Shown piece after piece: positions 32,016 to 43,671 of a stretch of 64,000 nt of DNA. Both the position numbers and the translations under genes were made by a program. Position 1 is the first letter of the stretch. Each line of letters starts with the position of its first letter. This stretch comes from Escherichia coli (lineage in GTDB: Bacteria > Pseudomonadota > Gammaproteobacteria > Enterobacterales > Enterobacteriaceae). The stretch is taken from NCBI RefSeq assembly GCF_030013595.1, contig NZ_CP122768.1, one strand, 5' to 3'. The notes beneath the pieces were generated by a model. It was not told where the DNA came from. It saw nothing but the letters and a program-made list of their open reading frames with translations, and ran no database searches.

Positions 32016-32045
32016 AAAAAGGGCCACCAGCGGCCCGTAAAAAAC
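32016..32045 (-). terminator. intrinsic terminator-like hairpin (gggccgctggtggccc + T-run on the minus strand)
   Basis: Perfect GC stem followed by ttttttattt on the minus strand just upstream of the holin; candidate tR'-like site. Confidence 0.5.
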
Positions 32046-32159
32046 AACACCCCGTCAAAGGCACCCGCAGATACCTTTTGTGTGGTGTATTCAGATTTGA
32101 CATACGCTGAGCAGGGCGAAGAAATGAAAAAGGCCCGCAGTAGCGAGCCATGAAGAAAC

Positions 32160-32195
32160 TGAATAAAAAAAAACCGCCTGGTACGGCGGTTAAGA
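32160..32195 (-). terminator. intrinsic terminator-like hairpin (ccgccgtaccaggcgg + T9 on the minus strand)
   Basis: Stem-loop followed by nine T residues on the minus strand, downstream of the tRNA cluster. Confidence 0.55.
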
Positions 32196-32453
32196 TGAAT
32201 TTCCAGGTTTTGCTTAATACGTGATTAATCTCAACGTTTTTTATAGATGTTAACAACATCGGAATGATGCATCACCGGCCCTGTCAGGAAATACAACATC
32301 TCCACCGATAATGCACCATTACGCTGTTGTAAAAAGACAGCACTGGGCTGTAACCGATATCACGTATTACAGAACAGGATGTGGATAAAGATTCAGGAAA
32401 ACATCCCACATATAATATGTCAGTGCCCAAAACAACCTGGTATCGTCTACTGC

Positions 32454-32528
<75 letters not shown>

Positions 32529-32531
32529 ATA

Positions 32532-32607
<76 letters not shown>

Positions 32608-32609
32608 AC

Positions 32610-32686
32610 TGGACCGCCACCGGGGACTCGAACCTCGCACACTCAACTTAAAGGGTTGACGCTCTTTCCCGATGAGCTAGTGGCGG
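32610..32686 (-). tRNA. tRNA with nominal anticodon UUU (Lys) but atypical anticodon loop (C at position 33)
   Basis: Acceptor ccgccac/gtggcgg, GGTTCGAGTCC T-loop, anticodon arm tcaac-CCTTTAA-gttga; one mismatch in the T-stem. Confidence 0.45.
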
Positions 32687-32687
32687 T

Positions 32688-32763
32688 TGGTGGCCCTTGC
32701 TGGATTTGAACCAGCGACCTGGCGATTATGAGTCGCTCGCTCTCACCACTGAGCTAAAGGGCC
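32688..32763 (-). tRNA. tRNA-Ile2 (anticodon CAU, ileX/ileZ-like)
   Basis: Sequence closely resembles E. coli minor tRNA-Ile (GGCCC.TTAGCTCAGTGGT.AGAGC…GACTCATAATCGC…GGTTCAA.TCC…GGGCCACCA). Confidence 0.7.
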
Positions 32764-32973
32764 GGGCGCAGGATAATAACGTTACAAAATCAATGTTGCA
32801 AGCATTCAAAAATCACCTGGTTAAAAATCACCCTTACTTCCTCCACCAGCGCATTCACCATGTCTATCCGAGATAAGTGGCACAAAAAAAACCACATTTG
32901 GGCGGGTTTTGTTTGCTTTTGCCATCACGTACAAAATCGGCAAAATATCAGATTTGCATAAAATATATGCCTT

Positions 32974-33669
32974 TCAATCTACTTTTGCAACACTTTGCTT
33001 TGAAAATGCCGCCTTTTGTTTTGAACGCGTTCTCATTACAAACAATAAAGCCCCACTATCCAGTCGGTAAAAAATGTGTTTCATTGCAACCCAGTGACGA
33101 GTAAATGTTTTGGACCAGTTTTTAGTTGTCACTCCCGCCAGTAATGCCAGCTCCTGGTATTCATAACCTTCCCCACCAAAAAGTTCTGCTTTTACTGCCT
33201 GCGCCGCCAGCCAGATTAATTTTTTCAGGCGTTCCTGCGTTTTCCCTGCAATTTTTCTGGTACCGGATTGAGTATTAAATTCGTTCCACGCCCACTGTGT
33301 TATCGCGATCTGATGCTCCCAGCAAATGTTTCCGCCGTAACACCACAACAACCAGGCTTTATGATGCTCTTCAAGAGACAGCACAGCCCGCCGCCATGAT
33401 GATGTCGAAAACTCAACCGGGCTGACCAGGGCAATTGATGAGCCTTTCGCCAGTGATTGTTTTCCCGGGATTGGTGGATTATCCCGCGTTATCATTTTTC
33501 CAGTCACTTCATCGCGGTACCGGATTTTTTTACGCCTGTAACGCCCTGTATCAAACATGGCATTCTCCTGCCAGGCTTCAAGCTGACCTTTTGTTGCCCC
33601 ACTCAAATCAGCGGTGGCGATAATGAGCTGCTCGCGCACAAACTGTAAATACTGGTTATTCATGCGCAC
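32974..33669 (-). CDS. putative late-gene antiterminator (Q-like)
   Basis: 231-aa ORF immediately upstream of the tRNA/lysis block and downstream of rusA. Confidence 0.5.
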   Translation of the reverse strand: MRMNNQYLQFVREQLIIATADLSGATKGQLEAWQENAMFDTGRYRRKKIRYRDEVTGKMITRDNPPIPGKQSLAKGSSIALVSPVEFSTSSWRRAVLSLEEHHKAWLLWCYGGNICWEHQIAITQWAWNEFNTQSGTRKIAGKTQERLKKLIWLAAQAVKAELFGGEGYEYQELALLAGVTTKNWSKTFTRHWVAMKHIFYRLDSGALLFVMRTRSKQKAAFSKQSVAKVD

Positions 33670-35431: not shown

Positions 35432-35692
35432 TTATTCTTCTGCAAAAGCAGAAAATCCAGCCTTAAGACCAATCTCTTTCAGAACCTGTAATGATGTTAC
35501 AAATTCATCTTCACGCAAAATAAAACCGTCCGTCATAAGCTCATCAACAAAATAAATTAACACAGCTCCGCTCTTCCTTTGTTGAGATTGCAAACATTTA
35601 ATTCGGCAGTGACTGGCTATAACTCCATTCTCAACGCGTACAGCATAGAGGCCATTTTCACTAAAAATTTCACAAAATTCTTCGATTTTCAT
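35432..35692 (-). CDS. hypothetical protein
   Basis: 86-aa ORF; no recognisable motif. Confidence 0.35.
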   Translation of the reverse strand: MKIEEFCEIFSENGLYAVRVENGVIASHCRIKCLQSQQRKSGAVLIYFVDELMTDGFILREDEFVTSLQVLKEIGLKAGFSAFAEE

Positions 35693-36044: not shown

Positions 36045-36108
36045 GCGGGTGCTTTGAGGATGCCTGACACATCAGAGGTGGCGAGGGATTTCTCCCTCGC
36101 CTGGTCTC

Positions 36109-36264
36109 TTACTCCTCAGGTTCGTAAGCTGTGAAGACAGCGACCTCCGTCTGGCCGGTTCGGATTCGTACCTCGCAGAGGTCTTTCCTCGTTACCAGTG
36201 CCGTCACTATGACGGTTAAACAGATGACGATCAGGGCGATTAACATCGCCTTTTGCTGCTTCAT
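36109..36264 (-). CDS. hok: Hok/Gef-family type I toxin (51 aa), absent from the ORF track
   Basis: Hand translation: MKQQKAMLIALIVICLTVIVTALVTRKDLCEVRIRTGQTEVAVFTAYEPEE; SD aggag upstream; overlapping short mok-like frame; hallmark Hok TM domain and conserved Cys. Confidence 0.85.
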   Translation of the reverse strand: MKQQKAMLIALIVICLTVIVTALVTRKDLCEVRIRTGQTEVAVFTAYEPEE

Positions 36265-36554
36265 AGCCTGCTTCTCCTTGACCTTTCGGTCCGTAAGAGG
36301 CTAATCTCTATGTGTCGCATAGATATGGCCTCAGATTAATGTTAAGCGTCTTGCAGGACGCGTAATGTTAACTGGGGCTTTTCTCTATCTGCCTTTTGGT
36401 GTTCATGCCTGAGGCAGATAGCCTCAAGCACCCGCAGCAATTCTACTTAACTCTCCTTTTCCCGCAAACCGTTTTTATCCCCATCGGCAAATCGAATACA
36501 CCACCAACGCCACCGCCATCGCAATTCCTACTGTAGTGAATGCCTCAGGCCAGG

Positions 36555-36950
36555 TCATCGATTCACCTCCTGCTCAATATTTTTAAGGTCATTTTCCGCA
36601 TACAGTATTGCTGTCCTGGCTGCTCGTAACCGGGCTTTGGCGTTTTTCTCTTCACGTTCAAGTTTTGCCACAGCTTCACGAAGAGCATCCCGCTTTGCAT
36701 AGAGTGATTTTATCTCAGACACTATGTTTTCACCGTTTCTCGCACGCTCGAGAACAAGCTCGAACGGATCTAAAGCCAATCCGCATCGGTTACAGGTAAT
36801 CGTACGATTCACTTCTGAAATTGTTGTACGGATATGCTGACAGCATTTTTGCTCGCCGCTTTTTCTGTCGGTTATCACAACGTTGAGGAGTCCTTCCTCC
36901 TCTGATTTTGGCTGTACCAGGGTGATAACATTGTCGACTTCATTTTTCAT
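36555..36950 (-). CDS. hypothetical protein with Cys cluster and C-terminal coiled coil
   Basis: 131-aa ORF; CCQH…CNRCG motif. Confidence 0.4.
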   Translation of the reverse strand: MKNEVDNVITLVQPKSEEEGLLNVVITDRKSGEQKCCQHIRTTISEVNRTITCNRCGLALDPFELVLERARNGENIVSEIKSLYAKRDALREAVAKLEREEKNAKARLRAARTAILYAENDLKNIEQEVNR

Positions 36951-37483
36951 CAGTTCACCTCCTGCGGTGGTTCTGGTAGCGGCATCCAGTGAGTTGCCTG
37001 CTCAATATCATTACCCGGCTTAATCGTTGCATCCCCTCTCCGGAATGTACTTCCGGTATAGCGTGCGGAGCATATTAGCGGTTCAACCAGAGAGCTATCG
37101 AAATTCACCGAAATGATCACGTTCTGATTCTTCTCAGGCATTCGCTCACTACAGCTTATCCAGTCATTTTTAATGCCACTATCCTGACTCTGAAGCATAG
37201 TGGCGCGGTGACACCAGATAATCCAGCCAAGCGCCATATCCCATGCCATGTATTCGCTATCGCCATTTTTTGCCCTGCGACGATCTACAGATTCCCCGAA
37301 ACGCTTCTCCATAAATAATTCATAGGCTGCCCGTTCATCCGATACTGCTTCCAGCGATGCCAGTGCGATACGAAACACATCAGCAAGTAGGCTGTTTGAA
37401 GATTGGTTATCGTGCGCCGGATCGCTCAGGAAACCAGTGATGAATGATTTAATCTCCGCGTTTTCTCTGGTAATAGTGGTCAT
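36950..37483 (-). CDS. DUF551-domain phage protein
   Basis: Track ORF trimmed to MTTITREN; C-terminal HWMPLPEPP typical of DUF551. Confidence 0.55.
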   Translation of the reverse strand: MTTITRENAEIKSFITGFLSDPAHDNQSSNSLLADVFRIALASLEAVSDERAAYELFMEKRFGESVDRRRAKNGDSEYMAWDMALGWIIWCHRATMLQSQDSGIKNDWISCSERMPEKNQNVIISVNFDSSLVEPLICSARYTGSTFRRGDATIKPGNDIEQATHWMPLPEPPQEVN

Positions 37484-37484
37484 A

Positions 37485-37703
37485 TCAGTTCTCCTTATAC
37501 GGATTAATTTTATTGTGCAGTGTGTTGAACGACGCCCATACCACGTCGTTATACAATTCAATAACGGGCTCAATTACTTTTCCGATTATCCAGGCCAGTA
37601 ATAGCGGGAATATCGGTATCATCAATACGATAAACAGAATGAGAAACAGAAATTCTGTCGCTCTACTTTTTCGCGGATATTCTTTTCTGAATAATGTAGT
37701 CAT
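37485..37703 (-). CDS. small membrane protein
   Basis: 72-aa ORF with one hydrophobic helix. Confidence 0.35.
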   Translation of the reverse strand: MTTLFRKEYPRKSRATEFLFLILFIVLMIPIFPLLLAWIIGKVIEPVIELYNDVVWASFNTLHNKINPYKEN

Positions 37704-42739: not shown

Positions 42740-43389
42740 TGAGGCTGACGATGGAATTTAAAGATTTACCAATATCAATACAGGAAATGGCCGCTGATGT
42801 GATTCGCTCGCAACTGGCGCGGAACCCAATGATATTAGTAGATAAAGTGTTCATCAGAAATTTATCAAATCATGTCCGCAATTCTTTTACCGGACTGTAT
42901 TCATATTCGTTCACAAACAATCATTGTGTAGAAAATAAAGCAAAGCCCATTGCAGAAACGATAACGCAAAACATCAATACGAAACAAACCGAAGAAGAAA
43001 TTGACCAGTTTACCCGTGATGCTGGCTTAAAATGCAGGAAAGAAAAATCGCCATATGCGGGAAATATGTTTGTTTATGACAACCTTATCCGAATTCGTGG
43101 CGAAATTCCGACTGAATACCTGGCAAGAATTCACCAGGCATTACTTAAAAATCTGGAAACGGAAGTATTTGATGGCAATACCAACGGCTCCTTCGTGGTG
43201 TCAACTCTCGCAAAAGAGTGGGATACAGATAATCGCTGGAATGTTGCTACATGGTTATTCAGCAACAAAGCTGCTGCCCTGGAAGCTGCGGCCTGTATTT
43301 GCGACCTGCTAAGGACAGACCGCAAATACAACCTGGATGTGTATAGCTATATTTATGCTGAACACTATCCGCTATGGATTAACTGGTAA
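42739..43389 (+). CDS. hypothetical protein (moron, no recognisable family)
   Basis: 216-aa ORF; start may be 42751 (MEFKDL). Confidence 0.45.
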   Translation: MRLTMEFKDLPISIQEMAADVIRSQLARNPMILVDKVFIRNLSNHVRNSFTGLYSYSFTNNHCVENKAKPIAETITQNINTKQTEEEIDQFTRDAGLKCRKEKSPYAGNMFVYDNLIRIRGEIPTEYLARIHQALLKNLETEVFDGNTNGSFVVSTLAKEWDTDNRWNVATWLFSNKAAALEAAACICDLLRTDRKYNLDVYSYIYAEHYPLWINW

Positions 43390-43671
43390 TTACAAAGCTG
43401 TACCAGCAGGGCCACGGCGACCAGCGCCACGATTGTAATCAATGATGCCATTATAAAGCGCATTATTTAATTTATCGTCGAATGCCGATTCTGTGAGCCC
43501 TAGATCTGAATGAGTTTTTAATAACCCTGATTGCCTGAGTTGATTAACCAGGCATTCAATCTGTTTTTCAATAAGCGGATGTATTGGCTTGTTTGGCATT
43601 TTATCCTCCATTGAAGTTACTGGTTGAGAATGGAGACCACACGTGACAGCGTGTTGTCGTGCACCGGACAC
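43390..43671 (-). CDS. hypothetical small protein, convergent with the upstream gene
   Basis: Track ORF 93 aa; probable start at internal MEDKMPNK (~73 aa). Confidence 0.4.
   Translation of the reverse strand: MSGARQHAVTCGLHSQPVTSMEDKMPNKPIHPLIEKQIECLVNQLRQSGLLKTHSDLGLTESAFDDKLNNALYNGIIDYNRGAGRRGPAGTAL

Follow-up and report, generated by a model that had tools for sequence, protein, structure and literature searches.

Genomic context of the tRNA cluster

The window (the whole stretch of 64,000 nucleotides from Escherichia coli contig NZ_CP122768.1 that was analysed) carries four tightly spaced minus-strand tRNA genes called by ARAGORN, located downstream of the gene for the late antiterminator Q (Table 1). 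In transcription order these are a tRNA with anticodon CAU (called Met/Ile2 by ARAGORN, hereafter Ile2), a tRNA-like gene with C at position 33 (the C33 gene, its product the C33 RNA), tRNA-Thr(UGU) and tRNA-Gly(UCC). The C33 gene, counted as the third tRNA in an earlier note on this DNA, is thus the second. It is closely packed between its neighbours, with the CCA end of Ile2 lying 1 nt away and the Thr gene beginning 2 nt past it. Given their match to K-12 thrU and glyT, the Thr and Gly genes are host-derived copies; they occur in the prophage without tyrU, which separates thrU and glyT in the host operon.

Table 1. Features of the tRNA cluster and its surroundings, in window positions
Feature	Position	Strand	Details
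dicB	43340-43528		early region; RefSeq annotation of identical prophage
Serine/threonine kinase and PP2C phosphatase genes	~36093-37586		early region; RefSeq annotation of identical prophage
hokD toxin gene	35528-35683		early region; RefSeq annotation of identical prophage
Late antiterminator Q gene	32974..33669	(-)	directly upstream of tRNA cluster; ORF list and RefSeq annotation of the 100% identical ETEC1730 prophage
Second promoter-like site	32962-32990	(-)	at end of Q; consensus match only
Promoter-like site TTGCAA-17-TATTAT	32773..32801	(-)	ends ~10 nt upstream of first tRNA; consensus match only
First tRNA, anticodon CAU	32688..32763	(-)	72.5 bits; PGAP: tRNA-Ile; ileZ-type, lysidine tRNA-Ile2
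C33 tRNA-like gene	32610..32686	(-)	argN-family body, loop CCUUUAA, anticodon UUU, U73, encoded CCA; ARAGORN, Rfam, homology
Anticodon loop C32 C33 U34 U35 U36 A37 A38	32648..32654	(-)	C33 = 32653; UUU = 32652-32650; direct reading
tRNA-Thr(UGU)	32532..32607	(-)	73.8 bits; 100% identical to E. coli K-12 thrU
tRNA-Gly(UCC)	32454..32528	(-)	65.6 bits; K-12 glyT save compensated acceptor pair C6-G67 to U6-A67
Three intrinsic-terminator-like hairpins	32021..32191	(-)	32191-32172, 32149-32132, 32036-32021; between tRNA cluster and holin gene

The 401-nt cluster recurs with 100% identity in four further porcine ETEC chromosomes and its clade is found in 797 E. coli genomes, which rejects an assembly artefact. 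In ETEC1730 the cluster belongs to a lambdoid prophage integrated beside potC, where it lies between Q and the holin/endolysin genes, and the same Q-to-lysis slot holds ileZ-argN-argO and stx in Shiga-toxin phages. The early region of the prophage contains kinase/phosphatase genes, hokD and dicB. Promoter-like sites numbered 6 in the region vs 2.0 expected, and terminator-like sites 9 vs 1.9 expected. If the promoter upstream of the first tRNA is pR'-like, the tRNAs would occupy the Q-independent late leader and would be made even without Q. Rfam matches to the plastid-ycf2 5'UTR on the plus strand (32456-32763; 26-36 bits against a gathering score of 65.7) coincide precisely with the antisense strand of the Ile2, Thr and Gly genes and look like model artefacts caused by the resemblance of antisense tRNAs, while a weak GcvB match overlapping the terminator region (32163-32351; 22.5 bits vs 42) is probably due to chance.

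Sequence and fold of the C33 gene

ARAGORN calls the C33 gene tRNA-Lys(ttt), with a length of 77 nt. Arm by arm, the RNA reads CCGCCAC UA GCUC AUCGGGAAA GAGC G UCAAC CCUUUAA GUUGA GUGUG CGAGG UUCGAGU CCCCG GUGGCGG U CCA. Direct reading bears out the structural description in the earlier note: a 7-nt anticodon loop CCUUUAA that lacks the near-invariant U33 of elongator tRNAs, an acceptor stem of seven Watson-Crick pairs, a canonical T-loop (UUCGAGU) and one mismatch in the T-stem, A51.C63, which is the sole mismatch across the acceptor, D, anticodon and T stems. The window copy further has the core features U8, A14, G18G19, T-loop UUCRA and a purine at position 37; its first pair is C1-G72, its discriminator U73, and CCA is encoded.

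The check by covariance model proposed in the earlier note returned a tRNA match (RF00005, 44.6 bits, E=1.1e-07; gathering score 29), with the three neighbouring tRNAs scoring 65.6-73.8 bits. C33 was rejected as the cause of this low score: argN, which has a canonical U33 loop, reaches just 43.0 bits, so that the score of the C33 gene stems from its unusual body. Nor can the T-stem A.C mismatch be taken as a sign of decay, as the T-stem of host thrU has an A.C mismatch too; Ile2 (A27.C43) and glyT (U13.U22) carry stem mismatches elsewhere. A51.C63 is common to argN and the C33 gene and is repaired by C63U in three alleles. Thermodynamic folding was uninformative, with the cloverleaf not being the minimum-energy structure for the C33 RNA, nor for Ile2, Thr, Gly and lysT.

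Descent from phage tRNA-Arg

In alignments, the C33 gene groups with argN and prophage tRNA-Arg(UCU) alleles and not with K-12 lysT, with which it has little in common outside universal positions. From the Arg-UCU allele having the same variable loop it differs at 8 positions. Both argN (tRNA-Arg UCG of Stx-converting lambdoid phages) and the Arg(UCU) alleles occupy the same slot 2 downstream of Q, directly after a CAU tRNA, and they share with the C33 gene the CCGCCAY acceptor with C1-G72, the D-arm with A20, the T-arm CGAGG-UUCGAGU-CCCCG including A51.C63, U73, the encoded CCA and a similar Rfam score. Differences lie in the anticodon arm: the loop is CCUUUAA in the C33 gene, CUUCGAA in argN and CUUCUAA in Arg(UCU), i.e. 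C33 replaces U33 and U35 replaces the arginine determinant C35 (compared with argN, also U36 replaces G36), and a pair A30-U40 is present where the argN family has G30-C40. Judged by sequence and position, the C33 gene is a homologue of argN, the second gene of an ileZ-argN-argO-type cluster. Its "tRNA-Lys" label reflects anticodon, not descent, and the premise of a tRNA-Lys in the earlier note was wrong in this respect.

IMG/VR was scanned with the 3' half of the C33 gene or, alternatively, anchored on the Ile2 and Thr genes at either side. Slot 2 was filled in >120 contigs and holds mainly two alleles, Arg-UCU with loop CUUCUAA (48 loci, 11 sequences) and C33 with loop CCUUUAA (66 loci, 15 sequences). 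In the anchor-based sample, the central position X of the Ile2-[X]-Thr-Gly architecture was taken by the C33 allele in 47 loci and by Arg-UCU in 20. Neither single-step intermediate, CUUUUAA or CCUCUAA, was seen on this anticodon arm in 2.9 million IMG/VR viral contigs, where two scans gave three unrelated sequences only; U33C and C35U are thus coupled, unlike the prediction of a purely neutral path. In four viral contigs (L220:2843-2876, L221:848-881, L222, L223) Ile2 is joined to Thr by 2 nt and slot 2 is absent. A literature search on ileZ/argN/argO gave unrelated papers only.

Prevalence and fixation of C33

Of 5,426 complete E. coli genomes, 797 (~15%) carry a match to the C33 clade, at 852 places in all, and the mosaic prophages around it are of many kinds. 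Each of the 78 clade loci from viral contigs (IMG/VR, ~22 alleles) has C33, as does each of the nine E. coli copies that were fetched and aligned. The earlier note had asked whether homologues vary at this position or are degenerate: position 33 is invariably C in these copies, while the gene is degenerate in many of them (see below). Across the 78 loci, positions 33, 34 and 36-38 are constant, and 32 (C, U or A) and 35 vary. There is no support for the loop being specially conserved in the clade, since two of its seven positions vary vs 27/77 overall, and constant C33, U34, U36, A37 and A38 are expected by chance at a divergence of only ~3%. A copy in E. coli CE0026a (L211:251-327) has the loop CCUGUAA with anticodon UGU and is annotated in RefSeq as tRNA-Thr, beside a real thrU-like tRNA-Thr. 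Our literature search found no mention of C33 in any phage tRNA.

Substitution rates and lesions

Divergence was calculated for 248 prophage pairs with homologous flanks (<15% different), 147 of which form the U8-intact group. Positions fixed by the search patterns were excluded, leaving 52 unconstrained nt of the C33 gene (Table 2).

Table 2. Divergence per site in the tRNA cluster and its flanks
Region	All pairs	U8-intact group
Upstream 100 nt	0.038	0.033
Ile2	0	0
C33 gene, unconstrained 52 nt	0.031	0.014
Thr	0.008	0.005
Gly	0.012	0.006
Downstream region	0.019	0.022

The C33 gene accumulates changes at 2-4 times the rate of the adjacent Thr and Gly genes and at about that of the flanking non-coding DNA (0.4-0.8 of the upstream and 0.65-1.6 of the downstream rate), a contrast that is an indication and no formal test, as prophage pairs are not phylogenetically independent. 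In the U8-intact group its rate is 0.4-0.65 of the flank rate, so some residual constraint may exist there. Variable positions number 27/77 in the C33 gene vs 7/76 in Ile2. Using the Arg-UCU clade as a positive control for the same test left one usable pair, as its flanks are too mosaic. Stem changes in the C33 clade are mostly C-to-U transitions retaining G.U pairs, and they weigh little because most possible transitions in the C-rich 5' strand preserve pairing; a test of stem-preserving vs stem-breaking changes was dropped for the same reason (6/7 possible 5' acceptor-strand transitions preserve pairing).

Many copies carry lesions. Among 40 evenly sampled E. coli copies, 23 (~57%) were without tRNA annotation, and each of the seven unannotated copies that were fetched had U8C, variously accompanied by C4U, C11U, G18A, U12A, a deletion of U12 in the D-stem, or G52A. 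The Rfam tRNA model gave no match at E<=0.01 to any of these seven. One C33-clade allele has a 7-nt deletion, and the share of C33 copies without U8 ranges from a quarter to more than half. All 11 listed Arg-UCU alleles retain U8 and G18G19, and Arg-UCU alleles display full compensatory pairs (A3-U70, U4-A69, G30-C40). In PPompW-type EHEC prophages (L004, L214; O157, O55, O145, O111-type genomes), the copy has a 1-nt D-stem deletion and G3.U70; ARAGORN still calls it Lys, RefSeq gives no annotation, and an Arg-UCU tRNA stands in for Thr and Gly downstream.

A wider family of tRNA bodies with variable loops

The same body, with its hallmark acceptor CCGCCAC/GUGGCGG, T-loop UUCGAG and encoded CCA, was found in prophages of Salmonella, Citrobacter, Enterobacter, Lelliottia, Pluralibacter, Cedecea, Buttiauxella, Hafnia and Edwardsiella as well as in Yersinia phage YeP1 (L006), i.e. 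in at least 10 Enterobacterales genera in all and always in the Q-to-lysis region, with parts of the body being fixed by the search patterns used to collect the family. Its anticodon loops are extremely diverse: 201 loci contain 44 different loops of 5-9 nt, many of them 6 nt long or with A33, and copies of the family occur in genome contigs L177-L205, in L006 and in many of L007-L176. Outside E. coli, a canonical loop (CUCCUAA) was seen in the two Salmonella copies only, and four copies from another subfamily combine U33 and UUU with A32 and U38 (AUUUUAU). Other examples are loops with A33 (CAUUUAA, CAUAUAA, CAUUGCC), 6-nt loops (CAGGAU, CACGGU, CUUGGU) and the 5-nt loop UAAAU. Divergence per site was 0.088 in the body vs 0.375 in the loop for subfamily 2 (A33), and 0.068 vs 0.455 for subfamily 3 (6-nt loops). 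The 3' acceptor strand GGUGGCGG was present in 29/29 enterobacterial genome-scan matches, though it lies outside the search pattern, and the acceptor and T stems covary.

Random decay should not hit the loop alone, and the body in other genera therefore seems to be kept for an anticodon-independent purpose. For several copies the surrounding 400 nt contain no further tRNA call, so a role in processing neighbours can be at most a part of the explanation. An Rfam scan of two copies with 6-nt loops and the YeP1 copy gave no match at E<=0.01. A PHROG search for a conserved gene near stand-alone copies was uninformative (Bor-like, unknown, helicase), and clustering of neighbours around family copies yielded the usual Q, RusA, DUF968 and lysis genes only.

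Charging and decoding capacity

Lysine identity is determined by the anticodon and A73, with any other base at position 73 lowering charging (PMC9976931). The C33 RNA has the UUU anticodon, yet U73 instead of A73. Arginine identity in E. coli depends on A20, the main ArgRS determinant, and on C35, and the identity set also counts U/G36 (PMC9976931); here A20 and U36 are present and C35 is replaced by U. Both lysylation and decoding of the lysine codons AAA/AAG depend on t6A37 and mnm5s2U34. Without its modifications, tRNA-Lys is charged 140-fold less efficiently (PMC9976931). The t6A enzymes of E. coli (TsaBCDE) do not modify a U33C tRNA (PMC8887486), and U33 is held to enforce the U-turn required for ribosome binding (PMC13276492).

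Possible roles of the C33 RNA

The explanation that we favour, giving it about an even chance of being correct, sees the C33 RNA as a passenger that decodes nothing and slowly decays within a tRNA cluster under selection. The loop CUUCUAA of a slot-2 phage tRNA-Arg would have become CCUUUAA through the transitions U33C and C35U. C35U would have taken away the main arginine identity element and created the UUU anticodon, which is why gene finders call the gene Lys. The resulting RNA keeps A20, has U73 and not A73, and lacks the U33 required for the U-turn and, in E. coli, for t6A37 addition. It would be transcribed together with its three neighbours from the promoter region that follows Q and, given its intact acceptor arm, T arm and CCA, probably be excised by RNase P and 3' trimming. 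With poor charging and decoding expected, it probably contributes little or nothing to the reading of lysine codons. The gene may owe its persistence to its position 1-2 nt from two selected tRNAs, with which it would be carried along while slowly decaying.

The homology to argN, the fixed C33, the elevated substitution rate and the frequent loss of U8 are observed, and the clusters in which Ile2 is joined directly to Thr point to slot 2 as dispensable. Two marks of a pseudogene are present, namely faster substitution than in working neighbours and disabling lesions in many copies. Of the two options raised in the earlier note, a nuclease-resistant tRNA-Lys substitute or a decaying pseudogene, the latter is thus favoured by the fast substitution and the unannotated U8C copies, although some constraint may remain in the U8-intact group. 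On the other hand, the clade is common, the two mutations are coupled, and the strong conservation of the body elsewhere hints at a use of its own. A partial parallel is the pseudo-tRNA tRNA-Other of Bacillus cereus, which, like the C33 RNA, scores as tRNA-like, is associated with mobile DNA and is presumed to take no part in translation, but which is unrelated in sequence and has a demonstrated phenotype (PMC3399842). If the passenger explanation holds, hundreds of E. coli "tRNA-Lys" annotations would be mutated phage tRNA-Arg genes of doubtful function, and the C33 gene should be taken neither for lysine-decoding capacity nor for anti-PrrC/anti-PARIS armament. It would also illustrate the re-labelling of a phage tRNA by a change of anticodon and the carriage of a dead gene between selected neighbours.

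The conservation of the body outside E. coli is the basis for a different explanation. It is possible, though on the unlikely side, that the C33 RNA belongs to an undescribed family of non-decoding, body-acting tRNA mimics held by lambdoid Enterobacterales prophages between Q and the lysis genes; in E. coli, UUU together with C33 could then mimic tRNA-Lys without being cut or used. That the C33 RNA itself uses its body in this way, as a decoy or competitive inhibitor of tRNA-targeting nucleases or as a module for RNase P-dependent processing of the late-promoter transcript, is rather doubtful. The same body and location in at least 10 genera, the 44 loops among 201 loci that diverge far more than the bodies in subfamilies 2 and 3, the invariant 3' acceptor strand in 29 matches, the covarying stems and the stand-alone copies all speak for such a mimic. 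Moreover, competition by over-expressed viral tRNAs was raised as a possibility by the PARIS authors (PMC12409363), and a non-translating pseudo-tRNA with a cellular effect has been described in B. cereus (PMC3399842). However, the body is poorly conserved in the E. coli C33 clade, the opposite of the situation in other genera, parts of it were fixed by our search patterns, clusters lacking slot 2 exist, and no partner or target was found for the proposed mimic. If true, the C33 RNA could provide an entry to a conserved tRNA-mimic family with hypervariable loops undetected by Rfam. The specific finding of C33 is of modest interest compared with this family-wide loop variability, which is the more intriguing lead.

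Protection from defence nucleases, as proposed in the earlier note, is unlikely. In this scenario the C33 RNA is a working lysine tRNA on an arginine-type body, whose C33 and non-host anticodon stem make it a poor substrate for tRNA-Lys-specific nucleases, and the prophage could go on translating lysine codons once the host tRNA-Lys is cut. It is indeed a phage-encoded UUU tRNA changed near the cleavage sites, with C33 just 5' of the PrrC cut, and C33 occurs in every copy examined of a common clade. UUU arose repeatedly in these clusters (CCUUUAA, CAUUUAA, AUUUUAU and a thrU-derived CUUUUAA). E. coli is not known to be short of tRNA-Lys for the common AAA codon, and codon supply thus fails to explain the UUU anticodon. 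PrrC cleaves tRNA-Lys 3' of U33; RloC excises U34 by cutting on either side of it (PMC2610378). Anti-nuclease phage tRNAs are a published concept for virulent phages (PMC10264068, PMC11464382, PMC11555353), whose tRNA-Lys genes rescue infection from PrrC170 and PARIS (PMC11555353, PMC11464382). AriB of PARIS cuts C40|A41 in the sequence U36-A-A-U-C-A41 of tRNA-Lys and tRNA-Thr(UGU), and U39A abolishes cleavage (PMC12409363). The C33 RNA reads U36-A-A-G-U-U41, with U-C-A at 39-41 replaced by G-U-U, and therefore lacks the AriB site.

Several observations argue against such a role. The C33 gene evolves at nearly the rate of its flanks and has lost U8 in many copies (see above), its U73 should lower lysylation (PMC9976931), and the t6A enzymes of E. 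coli reject U33C tRNAs (PMC8887486). The K. lactis gamma-toxin, the sole anticodon nuclease tested on U33C substrates, cuts these like the wild type (PMC2275089), so that by analogy U33C may give no protection. Furthermore, the neighbouring Thr(UGU) equals host thrU and keeps its AriB site, i.e. the cluster is not generally hardened against PARIS. The tRNA-Lys genes of T5 and SP15 resemble the C33 gene in being phage-encoded, in having UUU and in an AriB-site sequence (39-41) unlike that of the host (PMC11464382, PMC12409363, PMC11555353), but their rescue was demonstrated by complementation, and the changes that protect the T5 tRNA map to positions 39 and 41 and not to 33 (PMC12409363). Unlike these genes, the C33 gene sits in a temperate phage, is of tRNA-Arg origin, has C33 and U73 and displays relaxed constraint. 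Finally, some clusters have a UUU tRNA with a canonical loop and A73 in slot 3. This is a thrU-like minus-strand gene with G35U and A26G in three viral contigs (L016:3481-3556, L094:5305-5380, L165:5502-5577), with loop CUUUUAA and the AriB site U-A-A-U-C-A retained, and on paper it would be the better lysine tRNA. Should nuclease evasion nonetheless prove true, it would be the first temperate-phage case of tRNA-based evasion of tRNA-Lys nucleases.

Very improbable is a second-site knock-out, in which C35U created a potential Lys-to-Arg missense tRNA that U33C was then selected to disable: the retained A20, the main E. coli ArgRS determinant (PMC9976931), and the lack of either single-mutant intermediate in IMG/VR would fit, but the argument is wholly inferential, loss of C35 alone should already cut arginylation greatly (PMC9976931), and a Lys-to-Arg replacement is conservative.

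A natural C33 in the same U36-A37-A38 context as in the C33 RNA exists in the initiator tRNA-Met of multicellular eukaryotes; the KEOPS of these organisms tolerates C33, while the C33 RNA would be an elongator in E. coli (PMC8887486).
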